NCBI GenBank assembly: GCA_030704615.1
Contig: CM060733.1
Span: forward strand, 4,836,001 to 4,900,000
Reading direction: 5' to 3'
Source: Takakia lepidozioides
Taxonomy: Eukaryota; Plantae; Bryophyta
Length of the DNA stretch: 64,000 nt
Positions 7,861 to 47,219 of this stretch are shown in pieces; position 1 is the stretch's first letter; the number at the start of each line of letters is the position of its first letter. The notes under the pieces are model-generated. The model was not told the origin of the DNA. It ran no database searches and saw nothing but the letters and a program-made list of their open reading frames with translations. The translations under genes and the position numbers were made by a program.

Positions 7861-8134
7861 CTGCAGCATTGGAGCCCGATGGAAGCCCGGCGTGCGAGAA
7901 GGGCTGGGAGAAAGAAGCGCACGAGAAAGGGAGGGACGAGAAGCGCGAGAACCTGGCGCTTCCCGCGGAACAATTTGCCACGGTGGAACCGTCATCGTGG
8001 AACTTTTTTGCCACCTTTTTGCCACCATTTTGCCACGATGGCAAAATGGCATTCTAAAATTCGCTGCCTGCCTTGAGCGGCTATAGGAGACATATGAACG
8101 TTGGAACAGCCTTTCTTTGGCCTCAATTTTTTTC

Positions 8135-8250
8135 TAATGCTTACACGCTGAGACTCCCTCCTTGTGTCCAAAATGCTATCCATTGTGAGTATGCTTGAGC
8201 AGTGCGGGTGGCATCAAGTTAGTCCACCATAACCGTGGACGATGAGCCTG
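8135..8250 (-). pseudogene. Displaced 3' fragment of the retroelement C5 DNA methyltransferase (motif VIII onward)
   Basis: Minus strand reads QAHRPRLWWTNLMPPALLKH, then DSILDTRRESQRV after a frameshift. This is the expected continuation of ...LLDAAALGS at 13091. Confidence 0.85.
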
Positions 8251-9715
8251 GGGGGATGCTAGAGTGTGAGCCCAGGAGCCTGTGAGCCCAGGAGCCTGGC
8301 GTGAGCCCAGGACACGTGGCATGATTTTGGGAAAGATGCGGCGTCTATTTCCGTGGAAGAGGACCCATTGCCGCAGAAACACGTCTTCATCCATATTTAC
8401 CCTGCAACCCTGCAACCCCAACCCTTGTCAGCCTTAAGGACCCACCTCAACCCCGACAGTGAACCTCGCCATCCCGCCCCTGTGCATGATACTACGCACT
8501 GACATCATCCATGGGACCATCCATGCATGCAACATTCATCCACAGTGCACATCCAATCTGGCTTCATCCATCCAAAAACATTCATCCTCCATCCATCCAA
8601 CCAAATATTGGTGTGATGGCATATGTCAAATGATTGTCTACTGGACTATGCACATATTCATCTTTGTTGAAAAACTTTTATTGAATGCACACAGTTGAAT
8701 TGGAGAGCAATGTTTAGAAAGAAAACACTTTCAAATTCGCAGGACGCGGGGGAGAGAATGTTTCAATTCAGGGATGTGAATTTCATTGTAGTCCGTGCTC
8801 ATCATTACAACGGATGGTGGGAAGAGAAATGGTGGTGCAACGGAAAACGGAGAGTGTGTCCCCTCATGTTCCATAAATGAATGCCCTCAAATACATCCGT
8901 AGGTGGTGTCAACACTGCTACTGCTACCACCTGAATCTGCTGAACTGCTAGAAGTACTGCTACCACCTGAAACTGCGGCACTATCATCTATGAAGACCTT
9001 TGCGCGGAGGTGCCTGAGCGTCTTCCTGGAACTCCAACGCAAGGGTGGGGAAGAAAGCACAGCTACTTGCACACGAGCAATGCCTTCCGCGTAGTAGGGA
9101 AAGACATAATTAAGAGGTGGGCTCCAGCACAAGTCCCTCAAGTATATGGAAGACAGGGGCCACGGGAGTGCGTTGACATTCCTGCAATCAGAAATGCACC
9201 ATTTGGGCAATAATCAGACAACAGAAGGGGACGCGACAGAGAATATACACAGGGATCAAATAGACAGAAAATGAACTTACTCACATGAAAAGTCATTGTC
9301 CAGGTCCTTGTCGTCTCTGTCGAGGATATCAATTTGCGCAGTGACATCCTTCACATTGGAGGTAGACGAGCCCCCTTGCAACTCGGCGAGTAGGCCAGTG
9401 AAAATATCTGCATCTCCTTCCATACCAAACAAGTGTCTGCCACCTGACTTGCAAGCATGGTAAGAAGCGCCTGCAAGAGACAGAATGATGGAATTAGATT
9501 TTTAGAATTGAGTAAAGAAGGTGCAGAAGGAAAGAAATCGATGACAAAGGCAAGAAGAGAAACCTGTGCCCAGAGTGAGATCTATGATGCGGGCCCCTGG
9601 CCGAGAACAACTCTCAATGATCGTTTGGATAAAAGTCTGGCTTTTTTCACGGGCCCCTCTCCAAGGCGTTCCATTTGGCTTTCGCAAACATACGTGGTTC
9701 CTGAGGTGGTTCCAT
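8251..9715 (-). mobile_element. Displaced right arm of the Mutator-type element, including its terminus
   Basis: Begins GGGGGATGCTAGAGTGTGAGCCC with GTGAGCCCAGG subterminal repeats that match those at 13093-13175. Contains the last methyltransferase exons. The inner boundary is approximate. Confidence 0.7.
8887..9715 (-). pseudogene. C-terminal exons of a beta-class N4/N6 DNA amino-methyltransferase
   Basis: Splicing GT-AG introns 9563-9471 and 9280-9182 gives NGTPWRGAREKSQTFIQTIIESCSRPGARIIDLTLGTG|ASYHACKSGGRHLFGMEGDADIF. This matches motifs X-I-II of N6_N4_Mtase (K...I...S..G..vlD.F.GsG....a....R...G.E.d). Confidence 0.8.
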
Positions 9716-10612
9716 TCTGAGGAATGGCTGGTGGATATAAGGAGGCACTGGCGGACCCTGTGGAGGCTTGCATGGGGCCTTGGAGGCCAAGTTTCATGAG
9801 CTCGTGAGTGTCTACAGAATGCTCTCATGGTCATGCAAGTGAGAGAAGTGAGGAAAAAGAGGGTGTTGGGATGAGAGCATGCTGAGGGATAGGCATTGCT
9901 TTAGCTTCCCTTCCTCGTAGCTTTCCACCTTCTCTGTAGGCCGAGACCTTTCCGTAGGTGGAGGCAAGAGTCAGTCCGGGTTTGGGCTGGGTTGCAGGAG
10001 CGACACTGTGGAGTTGTTTTTGGTGTGGGGGAGTTGTTGTTTTCATTCTTGTGTTTGGATCCCCTCCACACCTCTATGCTTGATTGTGCGTCATGTTAGT
10101 TTTGTGTGGGCGCTTGATTTTATAGGTGGTTGACTCGGGCTTGATCGCCGATCCAACCCTAGAGCATGCTGTCGATGGTGAGGCTGGGTTGATGACCAGT
10201 CAGACCATCTTTGTTTCTCCTGTGGTGAGGTTGGAGGTGATGACCAGCCAACCATGGGAGTGTCTGCAGTAGATGCAGGTGCAGGCTATGTTATGAATCT
10301 AGTATTCCAAACCATAAGCCGCATCAGGTTCTCTACCCGGATACCTTGTGGAGAGGGGGTTACAGACAGTTCATGATCGGTTGAGTGTCAGTTTGTCAAC
10401 ACGGAGATGCCACTAGTTGCTGAGGAAAATGCCGGTACGAGCACTAGCGATACTAGCGATACTAGCGATACTAGCGGGTACACGAGACGAGGTGTGCGGT
10501 TTAGGCCACCTTCACCTCCTGTGTAATCTACGGAAGGTTCTGATTCGGATTGTGAATCACGATGACTCACACCAGCGGTACAAGTTGTTTCCTTGTCATT
10601 GTTGTGGGACAC

Positions 10613-11366
10613 AATGGAGGAGATGTATAGAGCCACCAAGGGGCCACGAAGGTACTCTGGGACGGTGGGCTCCATCGAGTTGGATGATTTCATTCAAGAG
10701 TTTGATAGTTGGTGTGACTTGCAGTAAATGCGCAATCCACAACTGTTTACGCCTTTCATGGCATGGAAGGGGCTGTTTCAGCACCTTGAGGGACCGCCCA
10801 TGGATGATTACCATGAGTTTAGGCGGGGGCACGATATTGAGATCGAGGAGTAGAGGATGTATTGGTCACCCGACTATGTCTCCATCACTAGAGGCACAAG
10901 GGCAGCAGCCGCACCGGCAGCTGCACCAGCACCAGTGGCCGTGCCTGCCTTCAACCCCGTTGTGGAGTTCTTCGAAGAGTTGAGAAGGAATTACCAAGGG
11001 GTGAGGACAGAGAAGTTGAGGAGCTTGCAAGAGTTCCAGAGGAAGCCTATTGAGAGCTTGAGGGAGGCTTTTACTCGCATGAGGCGCTTGATAAATGTAA
11101 CCCAAGGGGTTACGGAAGCTCAGGCAGTCCAATTCTGGTACGGGATATTGGACAAGGAGCTGAGGAGAAGGGTGCGGGATGCAACTCTCCTACAAGTGGC
11201 CCAACCCACCTTAGCAAATGTGTTTTTGCTGGCAGAGCGGATAGAGCTCAACATGGTGGAGGAACGAGTGGTCATGGTGGGATTTGCTAAGGAGGCACCA
11301 CGGGGTAGTGGTATTCCTAGCCAGCCACTACCTCAACGTGCTCAAGGCAACAAGGGGCTCAGGTGA
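10613..11366 (+). pseudogene. Retrotransposon gag-like protein
   Basis: EFFEELRRNYQG..EKLRSLQEFQRKPIESLREAFTRMRRL...AVQFWYGILDKELRRRV has the Retrotrans_gag pattern (F..l.Q...Es..ey..Rf..L...F..GL...lr). Confidence 0.7.
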
Positions 11367-11487
11367 AGCCCAGGGAAGGACAGAGAGGACCTCAGATGCA
11401 GGGGTCTCTTACCGAGGCAGAGGTTACTAGGGCCATTGGGGAGAGCTACACGGGCAGCACCGTGTTGCCAAGGCTACGGCAGCTAGT

Positions 11488-12288
11488 GTGGTGTTGGGGG
11501 CGGCCACATCTGTGTGTCAGGCTCTATTGTTCTCGGCTACCATGATTGCGACGCCGGGGGTAAGACCAGTTGAGGTGTTCAGGCTGGCAGCTACACTCTG
11601 TGAGAGTGGGGAGGTCACTTCATCTTCTGCGGAGATAGTGAGAGGTGTAGTGACGGAGGGATCCTCGGATGTAAGGGTCAAGACTGCCACGGCGGCGGCA
11701 TGGCAAACTGTAGCTGCCAGGTTGGCGGAGCTGCCAGCTAGGCCAGCCATTGAGAGCGCCATGGTGACACCTGGAGTTGCCACGTTAGACAACTATGATG
11801 GCATTTTCTATTTGAGTGGACCGGCAGGCAAGAGGTACCGGCCACTGCGGGTCTTGTTGGACTCGGGAGCTCAGCCACTGATGCTGGGCAGAGCTGCTAT
11901 TACAGGCTTGGGCCTCACGGAGGCGGATATGGAGCCGTGCCCTTTCCAAATACATACATCTCTGGGAGGATTAGAGCAGGCTCGGGGCATCACACGGCAT
12001 GAGTTGGCTATCCGACTACAGCCGGATCATCCTACAGATGGCTCAGTGATGAGAGCCAAGGCCATTGTGACAGATGCGGTCTCGTACGATGTCCTTGTTG
12101 GTGGGGCAGTGTTGTACCCCATGGGCTTCACCCTGGATTTTTGGGAGGAGTCAGCTTCCTATAGGTCTGGATGGCAGTCAGGGGAGGGCCGGCGTGTGCA
12201 GCTCCCTGTGACATTCATAGAAGGAGTTGTGGTTGCCCAGCGAGGCAAGATGCCGTCATTGGCAGTATTCACAGCTGCAGTGACTTAG
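11488..12288 (+). pseudogene. Retropepsin-like aspartic protease region of the polyprotein
   Basis: Catalytic RVLLDSGA and the downstream YDVLVG motif. Confidence 0.8.
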
Positions 12289-12567
12289 CGTGAAAAATTG
12301 TTGGATGACAACACTCATTCAGAGGATGTGTCACCTCCGGGAGAGCAAGATGACATGCATGATATGGCGGAGTTGCCTGCCATGGTTGCTCACACTCCAC
12401 TGTGGGGCTCGAGCAAGGATTTCCAGCGGGTTGCTGATTGTCGGGTGCAACAAGCCTGGGTAGAGGCTTTTGTACCGTCAAGAGAGGAGGACAGTGCGGG
12501 GATTGCACCATGACCACCTCAATTGTCACCATTGGACACCACACCGATTGTGTGACAGTGTCCGGAT

Positions 12568-13094
12568 GAAGGCATTTGCCTTCTGGACTTGTTTGACGGG
12601 ATCAGCACCAGATTGGCTGCTGTTTACAGGCAGGTGTACGAGTTCGGCGTTACCTATACGTGGAGATGGATGAGACTGCACGACGCGTCTCACTCCGTCA
12701 TGTTGCTCAGTTGGTGCAGCAGTACCCTGAGTTGTTGCCGGTGTCTGCGGTTCGTGGATATCAGCAGGCCTTGCTAGCATACATCTCTTTGCTAGGGGCG
12801 CATGATTTGGGGCGGGTTGGCTCCATTGATTTGGTAGTGGCAGGTTGGCCTTGCCAAGAGCATTCATCAGCCAAGCATGGCAATGGATTGCGAGACTCGA
12901 GGTCGGGTCTGTTTTGGGAGATGGTGTGGGTTTTGCGCTACTTATAGCTTCATCAAGCTGTATCTCCAGCATACATCTTGGAGAATGTGCCACTGATGGG
13001 CGATTCTTGGGCCAAGGTGATGGCCAGTTTGCATCAAGTCCGGTTGTGGCTTGGGTCAGCAGTGTTGCTGGATGCAGCTGCATTGGGGTCACGG
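12568..13094 (+). pseudogene. Dnmt3-like cytosine-5 DNA methyltransferase, motifs I-VIII (5' part)
   Basis: LLDLFDGIST (I), YLYVEMD (II), IDLVVAGWPCQ (IV, catalytic PC), GLRDSRSGLFWEM, YILENV (VI), LLDAAALGS (VIII start). One frameshift near 12625 and a TAG at 12945. Confidence 0.9.
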
Positions 13095-13329
13095 GGAGTG
13101 CAGCTACGGCGTGAGCCTAGCCGCGTGAGCCCAAGAGCTTGGCTCATGCTTTGCCCTCTAAGCGTGAGCCCAGGGGTTTAGTGGAGGAAGAAGCAGGCCC
13201 CATACCCGAGTCATTTGTTTAGAGAGGGTCCTATTGTCGTGGAAGCAGTTATAGTGCTTAAAGAAAGGATGGGCAAGAACAAGCCCCAAAATATGACCAC
13301 TCATTGTGAAACAAGCAATGGTTTTTATT

Positions 13330-14520
13330 TATGTAGATGAGGTGAAAATTTGACAGATGACCATCTTCAAGCTTATTTAGGCTTTGTTTGTGAAGAATAT
13401 GTGTAACAAAATGAGCGGTTTATTGTGGAACTTGTTCAGGTTTGTATTATTGAAGATGAGGTGAAAAAAAAGCACATGGTCATTGTGATTGCTTATTTAG
13501 GGTGTCTTTGTGAAGAAGAGGTAAAAAAAAACATTGAGCTATCCTTGTGAAACTTGTTTAGGATTCTGTTATTGAAGAAGAGGTGAAAAAAAAATCAGAT
13601 GGTCATCATGAATGCTTATATAGGGTTTGTTTGTGAAGAAGAGGTGGAAAAAAAAAGCTAAGCTCTATCATTGTCAAACTTGTTTAGGTTTCTGTTATTG
13701 AATAAGAGGTGAAAAAAGAAATCAGATGGTCATTTATTTAGGGTTTGTTTGTGAAGAAGAGGTGAAAAAATTGAGCTCTCATTCTCAAACTTGTTAAGGT
13801 TTATGTTATTGAAGAAGAGGTGAAAAAATATTAGATGGTCATCATGAATGCTTATTTAGGGTTTGTTTGTGAAGAAGAGGTGAAAAAAAAGTTGAGCTCT
13901 ATCATTGTCAAACTTCTTCAGGTTTCTGTTATTGAAGAAGAGGTGAAAAAAAAACCAGACGGTCATCATGAATGCTTATTTAGGGAATAAATTAGGGATT
14001 GTTTGTGAAGAAGAGGTGAAAAAAAAAACTTGAGCTCTACCATTGTCAAACTTCTTAAGGTTTCTGTTATTGAAGAAGAGGTGAAAAAAAACCAGATGGT
14101 CATCATGAATGCTTATTTAGGGTTTGTTTGTGAAGAAGAGGTGAAAAAAATTGAGCTCTATCATTGTCAATCTTGTTCAAGTTTCTGTTGATGAAAAAGA
14201 GGTGAAAAAAAAAATCAGATGGTCATCATGAATAAATTAGGGATTGTTTGTGAAGAAGAGGTGAAAAAAAAACTTGAGCTCTATCATTGTCAAACTTCTT
14301 CAGGTTTTTGTTATTGAAGAAGAGGTGAAAAAAAAATCATATGGTCATCATGAATGCTTATGTAGGGTTTGTTTGTATAGAGGACGTGAAAACAAATGAG
14401 CTGTCATTGTGAAACTTGTTCAGGTGCTTGTTATTCAAGAAGAAGTGGAAAAAAAATACAGATGGTCATCATGAAGCTCATTTACGCAATGCTTCTGTAG
14501 AGGCCGTCAAAAAAAAAAGT
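13330..14520. repeat. Tandem array of ~118-bp dimers built from two alternating ~59-bp subunits
   Basis: Every subunit ends in GAAGAAGAGGTGAAAAAA. Type A is TTGAGCTCTATCATTGTCAAACTT.. and type B is CAGATGGTCATCATGAATGCTTATTTAGGG.. About 10 dimers. Confidence 0.9.
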
Positions 14521-14808
14521 GAGCTTTCATACTGACACTTGTCCATGTTTGGCAGGCCCGCGAACCAAAAACCGTTTTTTTTTTTTTTTTTTTTTGGTTT
14601 GGCCCGGGGAAATATTGGGGGTGGGGGCAGAAGTGGTGTGCGTTGACGCACTCAATTTTAGAGGCTCGTTAACCAAACCCGATGTAAAAATAAACTACCT
14701 TTCAAAACGAGACATCGTTTGTTTGTCCAGATTTAAGAACTGAGTATACATGTTCTACAAACAAGGCAGCCCTTTCCGACATTGCAAAAAATCGCAACAT
14801 ATGCAACA

Positions 14809-17800
14809 CTACTCGATATTGCCAATGTCTCGCTGCAAAAGTGTCCGTACCTCACCAGGACCAAGTGTCGCCTGGTGAATGATTTGGTCTCTTTTGGGAT
14901 CACAATACAGCCTGCGCAAAAAGATGTAGTAAAGATGCTTGCAGGGAACCCATTTCTCTCTCTTTCCTAGAGCTTCCTCACGCATGCACACGAAGTCGGG
15001 ACAGGTACACCCCGGAAAATTCCCCACCGTCACCTGATAGGCCCTGTCGTGCAAAACAGACCCAGATGTGACCAAAGTATAAACCCGTCCACACCCAGGT
15101 GAAGGTACTTCCATTGCTCCTGTTACCCGAGCCTGAAGTAGTTTGGCCGATTCCACCTTCGCATCGTGATCAGGCCCCGAAGCCACCCGATGCACTATTT
15201 TGCCATTCCTTCTCATGGGATGCGAAGTATCGTCTGGAGGAGGCACCATAGCAGCAAGGCCACCAAGAGTTGACGCCACAGATCGGTGCAAACGAAAGCC
15301 GTCGTCCTCCAACTTGCCAATCTCCAGTGTTGTTAGGGAGGTTCCCAGCCGCACTGGCCAAATGGTGGGTGGGGGAGGCTTAGCAATGCAAGAGTCGCGG
15401 ACGGTACCATTCACACAGCGAGCCATATCGTCCGGGCAGAACCAGAATTTGTGCGTCTTCGACTCCTTTGACATATATGGCCGAATCAAACCTGTGAACG
15501 TCGGAGTTGGAGTACCCGCTGAGCCTTTGGCTATCCTGGACTTACACTTTTCATAACTAATGGCCCTCACTGTAGCGCAGCCAACTCTAGACCCTAGAGT
15601 AGTTTGCTCGATGTGCCATTCGGAGTCAGCACAAGGTGACTCCTGCACTGCCCCCCTGTGGTCCTGCTGGAAACCCGCAATTACAGGGGTTGCAGGTAGA
15701 GGACAGGTCTCTGTGGAAGAGGATGCACCAGTAGCCTCTTTCCTACTGGATGCCATGCTTTGTAGTGGAGAAATCTTGGGTACAGAGAAGTTGTCTCTGT
15801 CATGGCGATGTGAATCCCCATCTAATCCTGGAGGTGTATTTAGCTTGCGTTTGCAAGTCCCAAACCTTTCCTCTCCTTCCAGATGGGGCTCTTTTGATTG
15901 GAGAGGCGAGCCCATTGTGCACCTGTTCACTGCCTTTGCCATCTTCGTTGGATCCCCGGACCTTCTTGCAGCCCTCAGCATCAACTCTGTTGTATCTGGT
16001 CCCTTGCCCCCACATCGCCCCCTGAGAAAGTCACAATATCTTGTTTGCTGGGTTAGAGCTCGTACCAGATCATTTGTTGTAGCAATGTACAGATTCTTCT
16101 TGCTTTGCCATATTGCTGCTTCTAGGCGGCGTGAACGCTTTCTGCCAGGTTGCACGACGGCATGTCCGCAATGTCCTCAAGGGACATGTCCTGTGAAAGG
16201 AAAATGAAATAGCGTCATTCATGCAAGCGCGACTGTTCTGGGAACAAGGAAAGAAACTGGGCACATACAAGGGATTGCAGAGGTGAAAGGCAGCTTACAG
16301 TAATCATGAAATCCCCCCATTGCTTGTATCTGAAGTGCCAAAAGACCAACCAGTCTTCCAATTCTTTGACACCATCCTGATCAGTAGCCCCTGACGAGAA
16401 CCACCATGCTCTCACTGTCTGGTACATGGTCTCAGCCTCTTCCATTGTAGTCGCATTTTTGTACATGAAGTAGAGCCTCGTGTGCTCCGCCTGCAGATCT
16501 CTTCTGATGCACCTCTTCGTATGTTTATGCAGGGACTGAGTCCAGTGGAATAGACATGTGCGCTCCCTATTAGGCATGGGTACCTTTGGATCACCAAATC
16601 CAAAAACTCGGCGCACAGCGTTGAAGTTAGCCTGTGCACTATCCGCCATAAACCCGTTGAAATTTATGCTTGTATGTCCATTGGACTCCATGACTGAAAG
16701 CAAACAATTCCACATTATCACCTGGGACTCTGTATCTTCAGACTGCATGTCACAGATGGCAATTGCCATTAGTCTTTTGTAGTTCGGGTCGTAAACATGG
16801 CAAGACATGGTTGTCCAGCCCTTTCACTCGTTTGCAATGATCGAACATCATCCAGAGACTTGAGGGGGCGTCTTTGGATGCAGTGATGGATCACTTCTCC
16901 GTGTTGAGCTCCCCCAACATTAGGAATAGGTGAATGCATTGAGAGTGCCCGGTGGAAACACAGGGTCCATCGACAACATTATGGAGCTCAAGGGAATAAG
17001 TCAATATGACTTTATCCAATCTAGCGTCTTCCCGGGTCAGGGGTCTTTAAAGGTTTACTTGTTAAAGATGTCTACGGTGGGCGAGGGCAGTGGCGTCAGC
17101 CTGGCCAAACGTATGCAACCAGGGGGGGATCTGGAGAACTGGATTCGCTTCCTTGCCCCAGAATGTGCATCTCTAGGAAACTTTTGCTGGCAGCCAGCAC
17201 TATGGCAGATGGTTTGGCTGAAGGGGACTTTGCAAACTCCTCCACGACAAGCCCACGCGCCAACACAACACTATCTCTGCAATCGCCGTGAGACACAGGA
17301 TGGTCGTGAGTCCCAAAATGAATGTAGGCTCGAGTCATGATTTTGCAACGGTGAGTAACGTAGTACATGGAGCAGGGCAATGTGCAATGCAGGAGGGGGC
17401 CACCTTGCAGAACTTACAAACAAATGTACTGGCAGACGGTGGGGCACAACCTGGGATAAAAGGATTGTCGGAGAGTCCTTCCCACTCACTCTCATTTTTA
17501 GCACCGCTCTTCATGAAACGCAGGCAACTTGCATTCACACATCTCAGATGCCCCACACAAACGCTCCTTCTGAATAGTTTACATCGTTGTGGATATTGGA
17601 CGTTTTGGTTTTGCACCATGGATGGCCGTCATGCTTTTTATCCATTCCTTGCAAGAGACCTAAGAGGCCCCCAGCACAAGTTGGTGGATTCAGTTCAAAG
17701 AGGATGTCACCGTCGAAGGAAGGTGGAAGGAAAGGAACCCTTTTTGTTGCGAATGAATCCCACAGTATCCCTACGATTTCGTTTTTGGATCCTGGTTTTC

Positions 17801-18000
17801 CTGACAATGCTTTCAGATGTGGGATGACGCTAATGATTTCCTGAACATCGACGTCCCCTTCAGGAAGACTGTTCATGGGAGCCAGTATTTCTGCCAATTC
17901 ATCATCCGAGGAATCCAACAGTGTCGCAAATGTTGTTGAAGTGGTGTCCTCCTGCTTCATAGTCACATGCCGCTTTCCTTGAATGACAGAGGCAGCTGTC
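14809..18000 (-). pseudogene. MULE-like transposase: GCM/WRKY-fold domain, DDE core, C-terminal SWIM finger
   Basis: DGHPWCKTKTSNI..RSVCVGHLRCVNASC..CKFC..IHFGTHDHP (GCM-like). MFDHCKRV..TTMSCHVYD, FMADSAQANFNAVRRVF and RTCLFHW (MULE D..D..CxxH). CTCPDF..PCKHLYY (SWIM). Frameshifted, with an internal inversion. The 5' end is uncertain. Confidence 0.8.
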
Positions 18001-18883
18001 CCATGAGTCACAATGGAGCCACCGGATTGTCTCCTTTCACTTCGGAACACACGATATTTTCCAGGAAGAACTCTCCATTCCTTGTGTTTCTGTGCAACGT
18101 GCGGCTTCTGCAACAACGTTCTTTTTAGGAGAAGCCATGTGGTGAACATACGATGGTGAGTACCAATACAACTGTGCGACATGGATAGGTAAAAACCTTC
18201 CGGAGGCGATTGCCAAATCCCAAAAGTGTTTGGTAAGACAAGAGGCAGTTGTACAACTGGCCCCACACATCAACCAATAACGGTCAAGGGTATTGAACCA
18301 CACCGCCAAAACAGTTTGGCAGTTGCCAAATTGATGGAGAAGGGAACAAAACTGTTTATTTTGTCAGTGTCACGGGGAAAAGACGGCGCCGTCTTGGATA
18401 TGGCAATCCAATTTGCGTTTTGCGGCGTTCCACAACGTGAACCCGAACAGTGCATTGAGTGCCGAACCCAGGAAATATCCGACGCCGGATGAACGCGGAC
18501 ATGGCATTCCTGACGTTATGTATGTTTTCGTTTTGAAGAAGGCAAAATCCGTGTATGATAGGGCGATGGCATGCCTCATGTGCGCAATATTTCATCCAAA
18601 TCACAAAACATCCACATTTGAAGAAAACGGCCTTATTGATGGCATTAGGGGCGCCCAATAAACCGCAGCCAGTGAGATCGATCCATTTGGGGGGTTAGAA
18701 GGTAGACACGCACATCCTTAACCACATGCATAACTGACGGCTTTAGAGGGTTCCTTACTTTCTCTATTGTTGTTAGTCTAGCTGGAGAGCTGCGGGAGTG
18801 AGAGAGAAGACATAGTAAGAAGACGTAGAAGGCAGTCCCTTTACTTCACGAGTGCGAGAGAGAGGAAAAACGCGCGAGTCAGA

Positions 18884-21800
18884 ATGAGAAATTTGCGCAA
18901 TCTGCAAAACGCTGATGAGCAGGTTGCACAGGATACGTCAACCCACGAATCAGAACAAATCCCAGAGGCGGGCCAGCCTGAAATGGAGGGAAGAAGGGAA
19001 GGGGAGGAGGCTGCCACGGAGACCATTGTGCATGACATGGACATCGTCACCACCACCGTCGGTGAGAAAGAAGCGACACCAAGGGAAGTTGTAAGGACGC
19101 AGCAAGAAGAGGCATCGGTAAGTGGTGTCATGAAACCCAGGGTAATCCTTCTCCCAAACTGCATGAATGTCGCTTGACTGTCGTACCAAGTGCATAGATA
19201 GGATACGAGAGATCCCCTGAAAATTGGGTGCGGCACCGCACTCAGTTTTGAGGGGAGCTCTATCACTTCCATTGTAGGCCGAGGTGAATAAGAAAGTCTT
19301 AGAGGCAGCAGGATCTGAAACGGAACCCTGAGAGGGACAGGGGGAAACTGAGTGCGGTGGCGCATTCATTTCAACTGAATGTTGGGCGATCGCTTGGGCA
19401 TTAGGGAAAGAGGAAGGTGATGTTCATAGTTTAGGTCCGAGAGACAATGGAGTGGCCACCCTGAACTGAGTGCGCCACCGCACTCAGTTTCTAAGCTCCA
19501 TGGAATCATTGAGTTGCTATTGCCTGAGGTGAACGGTAGATAGAAAGTGCGTTTATTCCATAGTGAGATCTCTTATGAGTTCTAAGAATCACATTAAGTC
19601 TAACCTGAAAACTGAGTGCGTTGGCGCACACAGTTCAGAGGTGTGATCGACAATGTTTTTGGACAGACGTGAAGACCCCAATGAACTCAAAACAGAAGTA
19701 GGCAAACAGATTTAATGGCTCCCAGAACTGAGTGCGCCACCGCACTCAGTTTTGGATCACCATAGAATGGTTAGTTTGCTTATGAGAGAGGTGAAACGAA
19801 AGTTAGAAAGTGTGTTTCATTCAAAGTGAGATCTCTTTTGAGTTTTCAGATAGACAGAAACAATAACCTTGAAACTGAGTGCGGTGGCACACTCAGTTTT
19901 GAGGTGAGGTCAACCATCTTTGTGGACAGAGGTAAAGACCCTGGTGTGCTCGAAAGAGAAAGCAGGACAGAGTGGAGGTCTCCCAGAAATGAGTGCGCCA
20001 CCGCACTCAATTTTTTGAGCACCTTTAGATGGTTGATTTGATGATGTCTGAGATGAACTACAAAGTGAAAATGATTGTAGAAATTGGAAAGCATTCTTTT
20101 TTAGTTATGGGGCGAACATTCAGAACACCCTGGAAACTGAGTGTGGTGGCGCACTCAGTTTTAACAATGGACTTGCAGATATTTGAAGACAATATGTAAG
20201 TCGAAGTTGATTTGGAATCCGGTTTTTAACTGAATATATATTTGTACAGTTTTGAGTGTGGTGGCGCACTCAGTTTCTGCCTCTAGAATGAAGCACACAA
20301 TGTGGAAGAGGAAGTGACAAAGGAGCCATTGACTGAGTAGAGATGGAGTGCCTGAAATGAACATAATTTCATAGATGTCATGGAAGGTGTCCAAGAAATG
20401 AGTGCGCCACCGCACTCAATTCCGGTTGACAGGAAAGGAGGGTTATGTGTGTAGTTTTGGAGAACTGATGTTTGTATGTTCCAATCCTTTGTGAGTCTCG
20501 AAAGTGAGTGCGCCACCACACTCAATTCTTGTAGGTGCCAGATCAGGAAAATGTAGCTGTGGAATGACGAAAAGGCTGTAATTGTGGGACGTGCAGGGGA
20601 GGAAAAGAAAAGGATTGCAGCCTGAGAAGCAGCAGCAGCAGCAGGAGGCATTGACTGAGAAGCCTGTTGAAGAAGACGATCATTTCTACGAAGAAAGAGC
20701 GGCAAAGGTCCTCGTGTACCAGAAGGTCAATTCCGCGCAGGTGATCAAGTCTATGCAGGTACCTGGAGGCAAGATTATGATCCCTCTCTGCCGCCTAATA
20801 TCAATGCCAATCGTTCAACCTGCCTTGACCGGGGATGTGTCCAAGTTGGAGTAGGATTTTAGTCACGGATACATAGAGGGGTCTCCAGTGTTTTACGTGT
20901 CCTTGTGCGATGCCAGTGGACAGGAGGTCTTGGTAGACGAGTCAATTGTGAAAAGTTGGGATCTAATATGGCGAGAAGTAAACGAGGAGTTTGAAGCCCA
21001 GATTTTGAGGAGACTATCCACACAAATGTTCTCCGGGAAAATGTTTCATATTTGGGATGACAATCACCGCTTCATGGCCTGGATGAACGTCATAAACAAA
21101 TATCACAGCACAGACGAGGACTGGCACTACCTTGTGGCGTCCATGGTGCTGGATCCGAAAGGAAACGTCACAGCACTTCTGACGGCTATGCATGACATCA
21201 ACAAGTAAGTATAATGCTCACCCTTCATGCCATTAGAATTCTCCGATTTGTTCTGTCTGTTTTGTATTTCCTGGTGAAGGAGGAAGTCATAGTATTTGTG
21301 TGGGACTGCAGGGGAACCGAAAGTGCACACGTGACGACAAATTTGGTCCACACTCTATTCAGGATACAGAAGGTGGGCCAAATGCCACTGGTCACCTTCA
21401 AAAACCTTATCAGTGCTGAGGCTTACAAGAAGTGCGAGACCTCCAAATCCGCCGACACATGGAACAAGCTCACCAGGGAGGCTTTCTATGACTACATGTA
21501 TGTTGTAAGTATTCCCTCCCTAGCTCTGTCTACTTGTTCATTCATAAAACCAGTTGACTAATAAGTTGTATACTGGAGTGTTCAGCAAGAGATTGCGGAG
21601 GCTGGAGAGAAAGGGAAAGCAGAGTATTATGCCAAAAAAGACCCAGGGGAGCGATCCTCAAAAGGAGTGGAAGAATCTATGAACAAGGAGATGGAGGTGG
21701 CGAAGAGGCACTACATGAGCGCGTTCATGAAACAACTTAGAATAGCCGACCCTGCTTTTGGCCCAAAGTTCTTGAATCAGGTCAGGATCCACTGGAACGT

Positions 21801-24086
21801 GAACACCAAGCTCGAAATGATGCAGGAGAAGCTTCATCGCCTGTCCACTGCCGTAGTGGAGCCAGAGGTGAAAGTGAAATGGCTTGAGATTTGGAACGCC
21901 GACCCGACAGTGAAAGATAACCACTGCTTTCCGAAGAGTGAGAAGAACAAGGAAACATGAGTCATAAAGCAATTCAGTGACCATGTTCTCGATATGTGGC
22001 TGCACAAAGCCACGTACTGGGCACAGGGTTTTTCCTCTCCCCTTTCCATTGCCACTGCAAATCTGCATTGCACCGGGAAAAGTCACTTACTCTTCTTAAA
22101 CATCTTTTATCTGAATTGTAGAACTGTTCTTGCGCAGATAGAGGCTCGGGCACAGCTGGTGCTGGAGAAGCAACTGAACGATTACAAGATTACTATGACT
22201 CCACCGACGGATACTCTAGAAGACTACGTCCGCCAATGGAAAGCAGCTTGCTTCGGCACTTGCTTCTTCAGGGAGTTCGCCAAAGAGGGAGGCATCTCGC
22301 GCACTAACGACTTCGAGCAGCAGCATGGATCAAAACAGGCCATGAAGAGGGTTCTATACAGGTCCTAGAGTCATAAATTATGAACTGGTTGAATGTTCTG
22401 AACCCTGTTGCAGATCTTCTCTTCCCTCGTCTTGACACCCTTTTTCCACCCTTCTTTCCTGTCTCACGAAGTTTCGATTTCGTTGCAGCCCTGCTCTTTT
22501 GAATAAACAGTCCCAAAACTGTGTGCGCTGACGCACTCAGTAAAGGGGTGGGCACTTCTGTGTCTCCCAAGCTTTCATTCTACATACGAATATCTGATCC
22601 TGTACTGAACCACACCTGCCCTGGCTTGTAAGTAGGGCCTGGGTGGACAGACCAAAAATTGAGTGCGCTGGCGCACACAGTCAAGGGGTCCTTAAACCAT
22701 TATCTCACACTTTCCCCACTCACTAATATTTCCTCTGTTTTGATTGTGTAGGTACATCAAGAACGTTCTCATTCTAGGCAAGAACTTGAGTCGACACCCG
22801 CACTTTATTGACCTATGGTGTGATCCATCCACCGCTCAGACAATGTACACTGCAGGGATTTTGAAGGATTACGGGACCTCGCATCTTCGAGACTGCTGCT
22901 GGTATATGGATATCCCACGGTTTGGATGCCCTTGGTCTGAGCTTGTGACCCGAAATCAAAATGACAATGCAAAGGCCTTGGCCCCTCTGACGGAGAAGGA
23001 GTTGCACGAGAGAAACTTGAGGATATTGGCTGAGAAAGAGCCTCTTGCACAGAATACGCCAGTCAAGCCTAGAAAGGACAAGGGGAAAGGGAAGGTAAAG
23101 GGGCAGAAAAACACTCCGAATGAGAATGAGATGGAGTCCGTGGTGCAATCGGGGCCAGTGCAGACCCCACCCCCAGCCAGAAAGCCTAACCGAAAGAAGA
23201 AGGGTCTTAAAAAGCCCTACGATGCAATGGAGCACCCATCTAGAATCATTTTTCCGGGCATGTGCGAGCTGGTAAACGACGGGTTCCTGGCCATGATGGA
23301 GACAAGGAAGTCAAGTTACAGTGGTGATCCTTCCAATACGTGGGACAAGCTATGTGCTTTTCTCCAATCGGTAAGCAATTATCATGCATGTGTTTGTGTT
23401 TTGTTTTCTTTGTTTTATTTTTACTCAGATCAGAAAGGTCGCTTATAAAACATCTTCCCCTTCTTACACGCTGTATTGCTTGCAGGCATGGAGGGGGAAG
23501 GAATATTGGGTGAATGGTGCACTGAAACCGCTTGCTTCGGAGATGGTTATTGTGGACATTCCGGACGGGCATCCAGTCCCGGATATTCTGCCCAGTGACA
23601 CCTGCCCAATATGGAACAAATTTGACGAGAGGTATTGGAGTTGGGTGTTTTCCTTTTGCAAGTTTTTCCTTTCCGATGCAGGGGTTCTTGTTATCATACA
23701 ATCTGTCACGATGAGATGTCGCTGGGAGCTGGCAAGCTACTTGAAAGCCTCGGGGATGCGGATTATCAAGACCTGGAATTGTGTCAACAGCCTATATCTG
23801 ACGAAGGGGGATTTCCCAGGGCAAAAGGTACGTTTCAAATACTTTTTTTTTATGTCTTCTCTGTTGAAGTTCCACTGTACTGACTGCTATGAAGTCATGC
23901 GGTTCGCACTGCCTGAATTGAGTGCTTCAGCGCACTCAGTTATGGCGGTGCATGAGCAATGACTCTGAACCCGTTCCATGTGGAATGGGTCTGCACTCCC
24001 ACCCAGATGTGCTATGAAACATTCCTCACTAATTATTGACCTCTTCATCGCAGACCCGTCTATTTGAGGCCGTCTGTCTCGTGAGG
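18884..24086 (+). pseudogene. Multi-exon accessory gene: ParB-like N-terminal domain plus N-terminal half of an N4/N6 amino-methyltransferase
   Basis: IPLCRLISMPIVQPALTGDVSKLE*DFSHGY...FHIWDDNHRFMAW (21056-21070) resembles the ParB DGxHR motif. Later exons read VIVDIPDG (motif IV position, 23555), FCKFFLSDAGVLVII, LKASGMRIIKTW, and exon 24054-24086 TRLFEAVCLVR. GT-AG introns are present. In-frame stops at 20852 and 21958. Confidence 0.7.
19222..20527. repeat. Array of 11 spaced 26-bp palindromes AACTGAGTGCG-N4-CGCACTCAGTT
   Basis: Starts at 19222, 19346, 19464, 19610, 19726, 19873, 19987, 20135, 20250, 20396 and 20502. Further copies at ~14633, 22517, 22657 and 23916. Confidence 0.95.
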
Positions 24087-24361: not shown

Positions 24362-24517
24362 CCCCAGACCCACCATTTCCAAATCAATAGTGGAGTGGCT
24401 ATGACCCCACTAAATTGCAGGTCCAGCTGATTTTTTCACCTATGGTTGCTATTCATGCAATTACATGGGGGTTGAAATCTCAAAATTGACAAGAGAAAAT
24501 GTGCCTCCAAATGAAGT

Positions 24518-24560
<43 letters not shown>

Positions 24561-24928
24561 TTTTTAAAAACCAATGGTGGATGTGTGTATGTAATGCTCA
24601 CACACCACAAGGTGAAGTGCTTTTTCCAAAATTGCTAATTTTATGCCAAAAATGGCCTTTGGAGTGCAATCTGTTTTGGGCTCGTTTACCTGCCACGTCA
24701 GCGGTCAACAAGCCTTTTTCAGACCCCAAAACGTAAATGAGAGATCTAAGATATTTTTTGTAGGTGGAAGCTTTTGTTTTTTTTTAATTTTGTTTTTTGC
24801 ATCATACTCGAGGCAAATCCCTTGTCATTAAAGCTTCAGGAGTGGGCCCCATCAGATTAGATCTGCAAAAATTAGGTCGAACTGCAAATTCAAAGTGACC
24901 CGATTCAGGTCGCTTGGGAACTTAAGGG
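24362..24928 (-). mobile_element. Truncated inverted copy of the piggyBac-like non-autonomous element
   Basis: Near-identical reverse complement of 25064-25606. Ends CTTGGGAACTTAAGGG|TTAA. Confidence 0.8.
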
Positions 24929-25063
24929 TTAAAATATAAATAACAATCAAGGGTTTTAATTTTTTTCCCTTCAAATAATCTGTAATAAAGTTCAATCCAA
25001 GGCTTCTGCCCCCTGTTTACCAAGTAGTGAATACGTAATTATCTTATCTCAATAATATTTTAA

Positions 25064-25878
25064 CCCTTAAGTTAGCAACCTGAATGGGGTCACTTTGAAT
25101 TTGCAATTCGACCTAATTTTTGCAGATCTAATCTGATGGGGCCCACTCCTGAAGCTTTAATGACAAGGGATTTGTCTCGAGTATGATGCAAAAAACAAAT
25201 TAAAAAAAAAACAAAAGCTTCCTCCTACAAAAAAATATCTTAGATCTCTCATTTACGTTTAGGGGCCTGAAAAGGGCTTGTTGACCGCTGACGTGGCAGG
25301 TAAACAAGCCCAAAACAGATTGCACTCCAAAGGCCATTTTTGGCATAAAATTAGCAATTTTGGAAAAAGCACTTCACCTTGTGGTGTGTGCCAGCATTAC
25401 ATACACACATCCACCATTGGCTTTTAAAACAATTGTAGAAAAAAAAAAGTACTTCATTTGGAGGCACATTTTCTCTTGTCAATTTTGAGATTTCAACCCC
25501 CATGTAATTGCATGAATAGCAACCATAGGTGAAAAAATCAGCTGGACCTGCAATTTAGTGGGGTCATAGCCACTCCACTATTGATTTGGAAATGGTGGGT
25601 CTTGGGGCAAGCAAAATTGGATAAAGCTAGGTTTTGATTTGGTCAAACCAATTTCTTTCTCACTTTTTCTTTGGGACCTGATATTTGAGGTCCGGGCCAA
25701 CGCTATAATCTCACAATTTCCACGGTGGACTTGGCTCATTTTTTGGTATGTCATGCATAGATGAGCTGGGCCCATTGCTATAAGGCTGGAATCTCTGGAT
25801 GATTTTCGGTAGGTTTCTAGGGGCAATTTACTGCAGCTGGGTACCCAAAATTGGTAAAAAGGCTTGGGAACTTGAGGG
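25064..25878 (+). mobile_element. piggyBac-like non-autonomous element
   Basis: TTAA|CCCTTAAGTT ... AACTTGAGGG|TTAA: TTAA on both flanks with CCC/GGG termini. Confidence 0.75.
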
Positions 25879-41599: not shown

Positions 41600-44500
41600 T
41601 CACTTCAGACTCATCACCCCCCAAGGGGAGCGCATGGAACTAAGTGAGTTGCCACTCTTGTAGGATCTCGTCGTTCCAACGCACCCTTGATTCGGACATT
41701 CTGGTGCAAATCCTCCCACCTCTGCCCCAAGATTGGTCAAAGTCTTGGAGGAGCTTGATGGCTCTCCTTTCCGCACATCTGGAAAGAGCTGCCCCCAACA
41801 CAAGCCACCCTTATGAGCCTCAGACAGGAGGTCTGAGTGAGCCTTAAAAATGACAGCCCTAACACAAAAAGGCTTACCCGAGAAAATTAAGGCACATCTA
41901 GCTTTCCAGATATTCCACAGCGTGTGCGCACGAAGCACAGCCCAAACAGGGCAGACTGACCACACCTCACCAGCATTAAAATTCAGCAGCAAGACAGAAG
42001 ATGCATCTGTAGGGACCGAGTTCCAAAGAGCATAATAACGAATAATTTTGGAACAGGTCTTTACAGGAAGAATACGATTAACCAATTTCCAGAGAAATCC
42101 TGAGATCTTCGCAGCCCTGTCCTTCCGCCACACATCCTCCCAGATGCATTTCCAAATAATGGGGGTATTCGGCAAGTGAGCCCTAGTCCATTTAAGGTTC
42201 ATTGATACCTTTGGGTTCAGCAGGGAACAGCCGAGCTTTACAGAGAATGCAAAAAAAAAAAAAAGCAGCCTGTTCTGCCAGATCCATTCGCCAAGATCAA
42301 ATTGAAGCATGGCCAGAGGGGCCAGCAAGAACCACATGAAAAAAGGGTTCGTATGACAGCCATTGTCAGCAGATGGATTCACCACCCCAGTTGTCTTGCA
42401 AACAATGCGAATAGCATAGCAGGAGATCTCCGGTACGGTACCCATAATGGGAGAATGCAGGTAACCAGAGTCTAAAGTCTGAAATTGCCAACCAGAAACC
42501 CAGGAGCCAGATCGAGTTAAGGCAAAAAAGGCCACTTTCAATTCACTGGAGTGGAGCCCAAGCCAGGCTGGAAACTGCCTTTTAATGGCCGGGAAGGATG
42601 TCAGGAAATCCAAGGGAGGGAGGTCAGCAGTCACTGTCTCCCACCCAGCTCTCAATCTAATTCGCGAGAGGGAGTCCTCAGCTGTCTCTGCAGGAATGAG
42701 AGCTCCATTTTTCTACACATGGAAGAAGTTGGAGATACCCGAAGCTCCCCAATGGGCCCAACGAGAAGAACATCTAACCAGCACTCCGAATCTCGGTTAT
42801 AATTTGCGAATAATGGCTGCCTGGGCGTTTCTTCAGGAGTCCGAGGCATAATTTGGGAGAGATGTTCCCTCATGGCCACCCAAGCTTGCCAAATTGATCC
42901 CCAAGCTGCGGAGCCCGAGAGAGCTTTGGAGTTGGAAGACCCCCCTTGCACTGTCCATGTGAGAGAGGGAGGCCAGATCGACGCTGGAGTTGGGCGAGCT
43001 TGAACCAGGTGATGACGGACCAAGAGACTCCAAAGAGATAACGAATGCTTGAAAATTCTAGGAACCCACTTGGCAAGCAAAGCTGAGATCTGGGACTGTG
43101 GGTCAATAATCCCAAGGCCACCATTGCATTTCTTCTGCGTTAGTTGCTGCCAACTTATGAGGGCACGCCGGGTCTGCCCCGGGGAAGAAGCCCCCCAAAT
43201 GAAATTCCGAATCAAGGCTTTCATCTGCCTGATAAAGAGCTTCCCAGGAAACCATACAGAGGCCGAGAACCAACATGAGGCTTCTAAAACTTGGTTCACA
43301 ATAAGAGCTCTACCAACTATGGAAAGGTGGACCGAGCACCAATAATTTAGTTTACTTCTGAGATGAGCCAAGACAGCATCCGCCCTCAGCTGGTCAGAAA
43401 AATCATGCCCCACAAGATGACCCAGCAAGACATGAGACTGCCCATCCTAAAGCCATGAGAGGTCGAGGTCATCTCCCCAAGGTGGACAATGAGCTGCTCC
43501 CGCCCCGTCTCTCAATTTAGATAGAATTCCTTTTGACTTCGTCCAGTTAATGTTCAGTCCAGAAGCCATACAAAATTCAGATAAGGAGAGGAGAGTGCCT
43601 TGGACATTGGCCTCGGAGCTGTTATCCACCAAAAGAGAAGTGTCATCGGCGTAAAGCGAGGATTTGATACTATAGTCTTGGATGGAAGGATGGATGATTC
43701 TAAGACCCACCACCTCAGGTCTGCTCTGAAGGAGATGACTAAGGCCATCAGCCGCTATAATAAAAAGGAAGGGGGAGAGGGGGCAACCCTGATGCACCGA
43801 GCGGGAGAGGGGGAAAGAGGTAGAGATTGACCCGTTCACCAGGACTTTACTGGAGGTTGAGTGGAGAAGGATTCGGATCCAGTGGAGGAAATTGCCTTTA
43901 ATTCCACAAGCTTGAAGAGCACCTAGCAGATAGCTCCACTCAATGTTATCGAATGCCTTCTCGAAGTCCAGCATCAGAAGAGCAAGAGGCTGATTAGATT
44001 CGTATGCAGTGTATAGAGCTTCATGCGCAAGAAGGATATTGTCCAAAATCATACGGTCTTTGAGAAAACCTGTCTGCTCATGCCTTATCAACTTGTAGAG
44101 AAGCGGCTGCAGCATGATGGCTAGAGCTTTAGCTATTATTTTGTAAACTGCGTCCAACAAGGTGATCGGCCTATAGTTCAAAATGGAATCTCGGTCGCCC
44201 TTCTTGTGGATGAGTGTAATTACTCCTTGAGAGATCTGAGAGGGCATTATCCCTTTTTGCAAAATGTCTTCAGTGAAGGAGACAAAGTCATCTCCACACA
44301 CCGTCCAAATAGCTTTAAAAAGCTCAACAGGTAACCCATCAATCCCAGGAGACTTGAAAGAGGCCACTCGCCAAAGCATCTGAAAGCTCCATGGAGGAAA
44401 AGGGGGCAGAAAGCTTTTCTAGTTCAGCCTCAGTGACCACTGACTTAAACATAGAAAGCACTTCAGCACGAGCTGCCAGATGAGCAGGGGCAGACGGTCA

Positions 44501-45796
44501 ATCAGAGAACAAGGAAGCATAGTGGGAAGCTGCCAATGAAGCCATTTTTTTGGGATTTAACACCTGCAGCCCCTGCTCATTTTTCAGGGAAGCAATGGTA
44601 GTAGCCGCACGGCGTTGCTTGGCTTTAAGAAAGAAATACCGAGACATCTTTTTCTCCTTCAAAGACCAATTGATGCCAGCCTTTCTTCTCATGTTTTCTT
44701 CCTTCGCATGAGTGAGCTCAGCCAGATTTCTTTTTGCCAAAAGGTAAGAATCCCATGTTTGAGAGTAAGCCCAGCCCGATTCCATTACCTTCTGGCATTG
44801 AGCTAGGCATTTAAGGAGGGCCTTCTCCTTCTTATTTCTGTTCATGGCGAAAGATCTAGAAAGCTCTTGAGCAATTTTTCTAACAGCCACCAGCTTTTTG
44901 AGGAAGCAAATCGAGGGGGAGGCGAAGTCCTGATCAGAAGACAACCAAGCTTTCTTGATGATCTCAAGATACTCGGGGATAACCAGGATGGAGGGGTTTA
45001 GTTTGAAAAAACCCCTTCCCTTGGCATGTGCCCCAGGCATAGCGAAAGAAGCACTCACCGCTGCATGGTCAAACCCTGGAAGGATAGGCCCTAAGGGTGA
45101 AGGCTTCACCCAGATTGCAGGGGTGGGAGAGCAGTATATATGATCCAGACGGGCCATACAGAGGTCAGGCGGAGTGCGGTTATTGGACCAGGTGAAAAGC
45201 AAGTCGTTCTGAAAATGGATAAAGGAATAAGACATCCCCACCGCAAAGCACAAAGCATTCCAGGCATCAGATTCATTCGAGGACAAGGTATGAGAAGCTG
45301 AACCAAGCCTATCATGAGGATTCTCAACCATATTCAAATCACCAGCTATAATCCAATGGGGTACGTTAGGATGAGCCTGTATCTTGAGCCGAAGGAAAGA
45401 CCAAAATTCGATTCTTTCTGCTACAGAATTGGGGGCATAAAGGTTCACAAAAGCCCATGCCTCAAAAGCAGAATTGATCAAGGAACAAACAACTTGAATT
45501 CTTCTTTGCATCCAGGAATCAACGGAAGAGAAGAAAGAAGTCAAAGAGGGAGAGATCAAAATAGTTGTACCCCCTCTTGAGTCCACGATAGAAGGGTTCC
45601 ACCAAGCTGCATTGCTAGGCCAAAAGGAACTGCCTAAAGCCTGGATTTTAGCTGCATCTAGCTTATGCTCCTGCAGGGAGATAAAAGCATTAGAGCTCCT
45701 AAAGTCCCCGGCCCACTGCTGTAACCTTCACCTCTTAGGCATAGAGGCATCAGATCCAATGCCTCTTATATTCCATGAGGTAAGCGTAAAATTCAT
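41600..45796 (-). pseudogene. LINE ORF2: APE endonuclease - reverse transcriptase - C-terminal domain
   Basis: SWNIRG, LQEHK, NLYAPN, GDLN, ARLD; KSPGIDG, YRPITLL, LDFEKAFD, QGCPLSP, YADD; GGLGI. Several stops and frameshifts. Confidence 0.95.
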
Positions 45797-46664
45797 GGAG
45801 GGAATTCTTGGAAGCCCATGGCATATCCATGACTTGATGGCTTATGTAACAAGAAGAGCAGCAGATGAATAGGTTGGTTAGGCTGGTCATGTAAAGTTGG
45901 CAACACCCTTGTGGCCTCGCGGATCGCATGTGAACCTGACCAGAAAAATCGGATCCCCAAAAGCTTGGAGCTGGAGAAGGATAGATCGAAAGTGTTCGGA
46001 CATCCCCATAGCAGCAAGGCTTAAATTTGAGAAGATTGGCCAACTTGCCATCACTTAGAGATTCTGCTGTTAATCTAGACAGCCAAGGAATTAGCTTAAA
46101 AACCGAGCAGCACTTCACCATACTGCCTGAAAACCGACACCGCGGGAGAAACCTCCGAAAACAAGAGAGAACCGCTCCAGAGCACCACCAGTGATCATCA
46201 AATACGCACAAATGAGATAGGGAGAGCTGATAAAGGCTCACCAATGGGAGTGCCTGGAAATCCTTCTCCACAGGTGCCAGAGCTACCTCCCTTGCCTCCA
46301 AATCCCTAATGTTGAATTAAACCGCCAGTCCATCCGATCAGAGGGGATTTTGAAGCTCCACCTCCAAACCCTTGGCTTTCTCCGATGCCATCAGCAGCTT
46401 CCTCCCAACAGCATACGTTTGAGCCAGCCAAGGCAATTCTACCGCGGAGCCACAACCAGCGGGGAATTTTGCATCAGAAACCCACCTAAACCCCCCCTCG
46501 CCTGCAATATCCTGGTCACACACGTCAGAAAAACGCATGACCGGGAGAACCTGTATGGTATAGGGGAAGTTTGACGAGTTGTCCTTACCCAGATAGGCCC
46601 CGAAGAAGAGGGCAGTGTCAGCAAATAGAGAAAAAGAAGGGAGCTTAGAAGAGAAAAGCTCGAT
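45750..46664 (-). pseudogene. LINE ORF1, C-terminal part
   Basis: Rejoins ORF1 in frame (..VVSKV|IELFSSK..) once the CACTA and one TSD copy are removed. Overlaps the ORF2 start. Confidence 0.7.
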
Positions 46665-47219
46665 CACCCACTACAACAGAACGCGGTATATCTGACTGCG
46701 AGGCCGCGGTAGTCATGGTTTTCCTGACTTTGACCATGACTTCCCTATATTTTTGGACCAAATGGGGCTTCATGTAGTCGTTGAAATGACTGCGTGACTA
46801 CGTAGTCCTCTGGGTGACTACGTTGGTAGACTTCGTCATGACTACATGGCTCCGCTAGACGGAAGGTTGGTCAACGATGGTTGACCAGCGCGAGTTCACC
46901 ACCAAACAGTCGTTGGAATGGCTTCTAGTGTGAAGCTTGGTAGCCAAAAGGTTAATTTTTTTTTAAATTTAAGTTGCTTATAGGGTTGCCCATTAGAAGG
47001 CCGGGACTTAGTTTTTTTTTTTTTTTTTTTTTTCTCCTGCGCGGTTTCTTAGTATCGAGCTGTTGTGTCATGGAACGCGAGGATCGTAGGATAGGGCGTG
47101 GGATGGAGGCTTTGTATTGAGCTACTGATGCGGGGCGAAGCGCAACCTGCACCGCAACCGCAATGGGCTCTTGGCTCATGTTATCTTGGGAGAGTCAGCT
47201 TGGCTTGGCAGTCCGTGTT

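Follow-up and report, generated by a model that had tools for sequence, protein, structure and literature searches.

The locus at 10613-13094 of the window (the whole stretch of 64,000 nucleotides analysed here) is almost certainly a copy of a moss Ty3/gypsy retrotransposon that bears a DNMT3-like C5 DNA methyltransferase (DNMT), and sequence comparison places it as an apparent land-plant member of the KnitGypsy-Dnmt3 lineage. In the main account of that lineage, the gypsy DNMT3 form is reported from Klebsormidium nitens only, its capture is assigned to the K. nitens lineage, and its role is left open (de Mendoza et al. 2018, PMC5890265). The window copy is a dead pseudogene that has been cut apart. 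The value of the find lies in the family: a range wider than published, a likely dosage switch between methyltransferase and reverse transcriptase (RT), and Marchantia as a route to testing.

Structure and decay of the window copy

Gag, protease and the first part of the DNMT lie in order on the plus strand. The 5′ non-coding region (9720-10613) has an uncertain left edge (~9700-9890) and was possibly cut by rearrangement; the edge was placed from summed contig depth, which increases from ~1e4 to 5e4 at 9724 and reaches 2-5e5 from position 9876 onward. This region had no blastn match among 80 metagenome loci, including peat-moss-like ones, and no LTR pair for the element was present among the repeats within the 64-kb window. 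A broken gag follows (10614-11409, ATG at 10614; identified by Pfam, tblastn of relatives and translation), with 58% identity across 291 columns to a polyprotein from Marchantia and a Pfam Retrotrans_gag match below the cut-off (E 0.005). The aspartic protease region (11431-12204) carries the catalytic motif LLDSGA at 11854-11871, is 45-47% identical to relatives and has a weak Pfam Asp_protease_2 match (E 0.034). A linker (12205-12567), whose frame is common to protease and motif I, leads into motifs I-VII of a DNMT3-like C5 methyltransferase (12568-13095). Three-frame translation located motif I at 12580-12600, motif II at 12651-12671, motif IV (AGWPCQ) at 12840-12857 and motif VI (YILENV) at 12972-12989. 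The preliminary description had put gag, protease and motifs I, II, IV, VI and VIII on a single strand, and this stands for everything except motif VIII: the DNMT match stops at 13095, where that motif begins, and motif VIII itself is found on the minus strand at 8248-8143.

The DNMT fragment matches Pfam DNA_methylase (PF00145) above the cut-off (E 4e-8), and its best relatives are far beyond chance (E ~1e-62). Identity is 66-73% to bryophyte relatives and 33% to the K. nitens domain. Atlas returned generic DNA_methylase clusters only. The motif order is linear (I-II-IV-VI-VIII), and we therefore rejected a plant DRM identity, DRM order being permuted.

Decay is extensive. Seven stops interrupt the copy (10725, 10851, 11364; 12286, 12511 and 12553, all in the linker; and 12945), frames break near 11353 in gag and near 12623 in the DNMT, and ~220 codons, including the zinc knuckle and linker, are deleted between 11409 and 11476. 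Searching the window with 25 relatives (tblastn) recovered neither DNMT motifs IX-X nor the RT, RNase H (RH), integrase (INT) or 3′ repeats of the element. The motifs of an active enzyme (I, IV, VI, VIII and IX-X) do not stand in one frame in the window copy, as they do in relatives.

The host, described beforehand as an apparent land plant, is a moss. A host acetolactate synthase (ALS) gene with introns lies at 55661-60592 on the plus strand; in a tree of 26 rows it clusters with its counterparts from Sphagnum and Physcomitrium (100/99), and its N-domain is 92% identical to that of Physcomitrium. The retroelement family is highly repeated in this moss. A single DNA run placed 26,266 contigs on 9000-13400, and summed depth, which is not copy number, is 2e5-1e6 over the element, compared with ~1e4 in the adjoining sequence and 250-1160 across 7900-8127.

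Relatives, domain order and trees

Close relatives of the window DNMT, at 60-70% identity, are retroelement polyproteins. A search with the DNMT fragment returned 25 proteins among 2370 candidates (17 from Marchantia, 1 from Calypogeia, 1 from Sphagnum and 6 others), and no host DNMT3 occurs among the named matches in sets of 25 and 76. At least 17 Marchantia gene models labelled as hypothetical proteins (among P0005-P0026) are pieces of the family; several keep Gag-protease (PR)-DNMT as one predicted protein, and four Marchantia proteins, together with the K. nitens protein, stop shortly past the DNMT. Searching 1.84 billion representatives with a profile produced 459 matches at E <=1e-30, the best 150 of which score 242-416 bits versus 76 bits for human DNMT3A.

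Typing of domain order in 223 related proteins revealed two layouts. The DNMT lies behind PR/Gag or ahead of RT in 50 proteins and between RNase H and integrase in 121 (51 were untyped and 1 was mixed). Species names among members of the PR-DNMT type are K. nitens (KFL_013780020), Closterium (five proteins) and Sphagnum fallax; for the RH-DNMT-INT type they are the chlorophytes Chromochloris, Haematococcus and Scenedesmus. KFL_013780020 has the same knuckle-PR-DNMT order as the window family, and we infer that it is one of the elements described in PMC5890265. At the DNA level, 16/80 metagenome loci preserve the full order gag-PR-DNMT-RT-RH-INT-PHD, so that the gag-PR-DNMT linkage is not confined to the present locus. 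A sister group with RH-DNMT-INT and a PHD finger is represented by proteins P0150-P0341 and by loci L074, L077, L079 and L080. We found no published report of a DNMT-bearing chlorophyte form in a literature search with subscription journals mostly outside its coverage.

Trees separate the same two groups. In an unrooted DNMT tree, the window sequence lies inside a bryophyte group (100/100), and 27 PR-DNMT-side rows, including K. nitens and Closterium, are divided from 23 RH-DNMT-INT rows by a branch with 100/99 support. The kinship with Klebsormidium elements that had been proposed is thereby upheld, the window DNMT, KFL_013780020 and Closterium all falling on one side of this branch. The split recurs in a wider DNMT tree of 194 rows (SH-aLRT 98), and an RT tree has a matching one (16 versus 33 rows, SH-aLRT 100). 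All trees are unrooted and built from rows other than host DNMT3, with rows whose DNMT match fell under 250-290 residues left out and, in three of the trees, chlorophyte-type rows subsampled at random (29 in a further DNMT tree, 33 in the RT tree and 23 in the 50-row DNMT tree, of ~113). Within bryophytes, DNMT branching does not follow host order: Marchantia and peat-moss-like rows group at 97/94 with the window moss outside, a pattern that could reflect old paralogues or horizontal moves.

The methyltransferase domain

The predicted fold of the family DNMT is DNMT3-like. When the family profile was compared with PDB sequences, DNMT3A matched best (E 2e-20), followed by DRM2 (2e-7) and HhaI (2e-6). 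A predicted structure of the intact relative P0003 (pLDDT 92) aligned with DNMT3A/B at Z 29.3 (rmsd 2.5, 273 aligned) and with HhaI at Z 24.7. The catalytic Cys, the motif VI Glu and the motif VIII Arg are invariant in 45/45 rows; the Pro of the PC motif is strictly kept in 30/40 and replaced in some relatives. Substitution patterns suggest that the domain has been under purifying selection, with dN/dS values of 0.25/2.25 (window versus L001), 0.29/1.97 (window versus L004) and 0.16/1.42 (L037 versus L073). The ratio is ~0.11-0.19, and so under 0.2, in distant pairs with finite dS; it is ~0.6 in the close pair L001/L006. CpG observed/expected is 0.51-0.58 in the element, 0.48 in the window and 0.42-0.63 in the window's other elements; relative to either of these, the element shows no CpG depletion.

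Stop codon, end repeats and proposed mechanism

A conserved in-frame stop commonly separates DNMT from RT in relatives. Both the DNMT end and RT are present in 52 loci and share one frame in 37, and in 36 of these 37 a TAG or TAA, in frame and with CAR as the next codon, lies between the two domains; it is the sole stop in 13. The full CAR-YYA context occurs in 4/36 and CAA-CCC in 31/36, most of the loci being near-copies that come from one kind of source. L027 has two consecutive stops between DNMT and RT, and at least three proteins (P0208, P0352 and P0312) run from DNMT to RT without a stop. Following UAG, CAR-YYA is the TMV signal that drives readthrough in plants (PMC2754532).

The ends of relatives have the form TG...CA, and 4-bp target duplications flank 4/4 distinct insertions, one of them mismatched. 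Relatives also show a split-repeat layout, X-coding-Y-X-Y, with a palindromic CA-NN-TG joint; self-blast detected it in 3/16 loci and reading in two more (together L041, L046, L068 and L071/L072), and it was not found in the other 11/16, several of which are incomplete. DIRS retrotransposons have a tyrosine recombinase instead of a DDE integrase and are not known to produce a target duplication. Since relatives carry an rve integrase, TG...CA ends and 4-bp duplications, assignment to the DIRS class was rejected. The stop, RT, integrase and end repeats are all known from relatives and not from the moss family of the window.

We consider it moderately likely that the family consists of KnitGypsy-Dnmt3-lineage elements that methylate their own cDNA through a packaged DNMT dosed by readthrough. 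The stop between DNMT and RT (UAG/UAA-CAR) would be leaky, giving Gag-PR-DNMT as the main product and RT-RH-INT-PHD by readthrough. With such a stop, more Gag-PR-DNMT than RT-RH-INT-PHD would be produced and packaged, putting DNMT at capsid dosage. The protease would then free the DNMT, which could methylate new cDNA inside the particle, ahead of insertion by the DDE integrase, and the new copy would arrive pre-marked like host chromatin.

A broader scheme, which we offer tentatively, would unite these elements in one ancient DNMT3-gypsy superclade spanning green plants. Its chlorophyte layout would be RT-RH-DNMT-INT-PHD, and that of streptophytes, Klebsormidium through to the mosses and liverworts, would be Gag-PR-DNMT-leaky stop-RT-RH-INT-PHD. 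Under this scheme the move of the DNMT would have given capsid-level dosage and cDNA pre-methylation, the integrase would open a circular copy at the CA-NN-TG joint, and the element, being among the most repeated of this moss, could shape bryophyte methylomes. The split-repeat and CA-NN-TG data are compatible with integration by opening of a circle.

Comparison with known elements

The closest described system is KnitGypsy-Dnmt3, which likewise encodes, within a gypsy polyprotein, a DNMT3-like domain that is unrearranged, free of introns and under purifying selection, and which has, according to its figure legend, DIRS-like split repeats (A-coding-B-A-B) of the kind seen here in relatives (PMC5890265). 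The present family differs in its moss host, its 33% DNMT identity, its high repetition, as opposed to the few copies in K. nitens, and the broken state of the window copy. The DNMT of KnitGypsy-Dnmt3 is placed in the Pol ORF, and the main text mentions neither a dividing stop nor a PHD finger, nor where the protease lies (PMC5890265).

Other retroelements also bear C5 methyltransferases, namely SymbioDIRS-Dnmt3 and SymbioLINE-Dnmt (PMC5890265) and the EpiLTRs (bioRxiv 10.64898/2026.05.21.726589), although each is described as an independent capture. The two Symbiodinium elements belong to other classes (tyrosine recombinase and LINE), and the DNMT3 domains of the DIRS form carry out de novo CG methylation in yeast (PMC5890265); EpiLTRs carry a DNMT of another clade (sister to DNMT4) together with DAM and a chromodomain (bioRxiv 10.64898/2026.05.21.726589). 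Host plant DNMT3 proteins (PpDNMT3a/b; Yaari et al. 2019, PMC6453930) share the DNMT3-type catalytic domain and its linear order; judged by their description there, host DNMT3 and DRM genes are set apart by low copy number and no fusion to Gag or protease, and DRMs are moreover permuted. Gypsy-7a_cRei of Chlamydomonas is a green-lineage gypsy element with a PHD finger, as in the present family, but the domain list in its figure legend, on which this comparison is based, includes no DNMT (bioRxiv 10.1101/2022.06.16.496473).

We found no land-plant report of a gypsy-DNMT3 element in the literature searched, with subscription journals mostly outside coverage. Two sources give "streptophytes" for gypsy-Dnmt3 and name no land plant in their available text, though the tree figures and preprint supplements may include land-plant rows (PMC12344493; bioRxiv 10.64898/2026.05.21.726589). 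The accessible parts of these two sources and of PMC11244446, PMC13468544, PMC6453930 and PMC11982613 likewise contain no mention of gypsy-DNMT3 in land plants, and Marchantia is absent from three supplements of PMC5890265.

Alternative explanations

Functions other than cDNA methylation would account for part of these data. The domain may serve the particle as a nucleic-acid-binding or structural component, or act on RNA, with DNA methylation not its job, and this accords with the lack of CpG depletion, with strict retention of the PC-motif Pro in just 30/40 and with the absence of methylation by the K. nitens domain in yeast, which its authors themselves regard as inconclusive (PMC5890265). 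We regard it as improbable given that the catalytic-cycle residues Cys, Glu and Arg do not vary and that the predicted fold is nearest DNMT3, not DNMT2. An active DNMT might instead work after integration, in the nucleus, methylating chromosomal copies or other targets and tuning silencing; the PHD finger that ends family integrases is of a chromatin-reader type, and the stop arrangement would yield plentiful free DNMT. Fusion to Gag nevertheless favours packaging, no targeting module is evident in a DNMT domain on its own and K. nitens, as described in PMC5890265, retains a plant-like methylome, all of which makes a nuclear role rather unlikely. Methylation of cDNA within the particle is the reading we prefer.

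As to origin, the hypothesis that part of the host DNMT3 gene came to lie next to a gag-protease fragment here and nowhere else is very improbable. The locus is indeed rearranged, with neither RT nor integrase, and host DNMT3 is absent from the trees. Such a local capture is contradicted by the family-wide linkage (16/80 loci with the full order), and protease, linker and motif I form one frame that matches relatives throughout, while depth stays high across the protease-DNMT junction. The DNMT is also intronless, whereas the host Dnmt3 of K. nitens has several exons and groups with bryophyte genes, away from the element clade (PMC5890265). More plausible, though still somewhat unlikely, is a history in which bryophytes gained or swapped the element horizontally, with no simple persistence from algal ancestors, a scenario compatible with the preferred mechanism. 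It would explain the 97/94 grouping that leaves the window moss outside; moss-liverwort DNMT identity is 71%, close to the 78% of the central exon of host ALS, the clade nearest the bryophyte group is not Closterium, and no fern, lycophyte or hornwort name occurs among the matches listed. On the other side, the window and peat-moss-like loci are saturated at synonymous sites, so any transfer would be old, the domain order is common to Klebsormidium, Closterium and bryophytes, and paralogous sub-families would produce an identical pattern. Because horizontal moves among bryophytes are possible, presence in embryophytes need not mean vertical persistence, which the preliminary description had suggested.

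This locus itself contributes a further dead copy and an unusual nesting; the wider interest lies in the family. Should the family prove common in mosses and liverworts, a genetic model plant could be used to test why a transposon carries the enzyme that silences it. Open reading frames of the family already sit unlabelled among Marchantia gene models, and such copies can inflate counts of DNA methyltransferases in bryophyte genomes.

Rearrangement of the locus and neighboring elements

The DNMT is split at motif VIII. Its displaced and inverted 3′ piece (8143-8248, minus strand; tblastn, blastn and depth) carries motif VIII together with the beginning of the target-recognition region; a short stretch is deleted within it at 8193, and summed depth peaks at 1.6-4.9e5 over 8128-8279. 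Contigs of other copies run on into motif VIII at 13095, where loose contig ends occur in three runs, and loose ends at the displaced piece show 8248 connected with the 13093 side in other copies. Adjoining the displaced piece is part of a second, less repeated element, likely a DNA transposon end (8249-9695, minus strand, depth ~1e4), of which 8365-9695 is spanned by a single 1928-nt contig. The likely other end of this transposon, at 13096-13200 on the plus strand, is similar to 8249-8400 read in the same direction (77% over 43 nt, E 0.02); the local score is 59, versus a median of 21 and a maximum of 44 in 500 random window stretches, except for one stretch scoring 128 that is most likely a self-overlap. 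Since the sequences at the two cut points are alike in the same orientation, it is likely that a DNA transposon cut the element at motif VIII and that an inversion then turned part of the locus.

The body of the inserted transposon would extend over 13300-23830, as suggested by an array, transposase-like frames, palindromes and a predicted gene. The tandem array (60/123-nt units, ~9 copies of the 123-mer; 13300-14500) lies inside the likely transposon end. Transposase-like frames (~14800-19400, minus strand; motifs judged by eye) stand head-to-head with a predicted gene (~20640-23830, plus strand) that combines a ParB-like part with the N-half of an N4/N6 amino-methyltransferase (Atlas 0.85-0.86, a weak lead), and palindromes occupy 19200-23950 between them. 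The last exon of this gene resembles the N-terminal half that matches a predicted C-terminal half of an amino-methyltransferase-like gene at ~9695-9400 (minus strand, predicted intron ~9563-9471; Atlas N6_N4_Mtase 0.90, 146 features shared, no more than a lead). Neither the amino-methyltransferase-like nor the transposase-like pieces had a Pfam or PDB match. We infer that one inversion, from ~9700 to ~23900, would account for both split genes, the DNMT and the amino-methyltransferase-like one. A cytosine-methyltransferase retroelement would thus likely have been cut by a DNA transposon with a predicted amino-methyltransferase. A comparable arrangement is described for Sola1-1_Ec32 of Ectocarpus (PMC12477816), a DNA transposon with an opposite-strand gene for a ParB-like and N4C/N6A methyltransferase protein, as predicted here for 13096-23830 plus 9695-8249; the window element differs in being fragmented and in a moss, and the likeness is weakly supported.

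Several further features occur downstream. A foldback of ~1.2 kb (24362-25606, arms 90-98% complementary) adjoins the inferred right breakpoint and may be a real rearrangement or an assembly artefact. A LINE with endonuclease and RT domains lies at 41600-46300 on the minus strand, and its RT (43450-44418) was rejected as part of the DNMT element, to which it is unrelated. Pieces of a broken PPR gene at 47238-51410 are amplified in 84- and 195-nt tandem units, and a 541-codon frame with a weak zinc knuckle lies at 52321-53946 (minus strand). A 30-nt inverted pair is present at 46669 and 52318, and the region 46669-52347 and the frame at 52321-53946 are probably further mobile elements.
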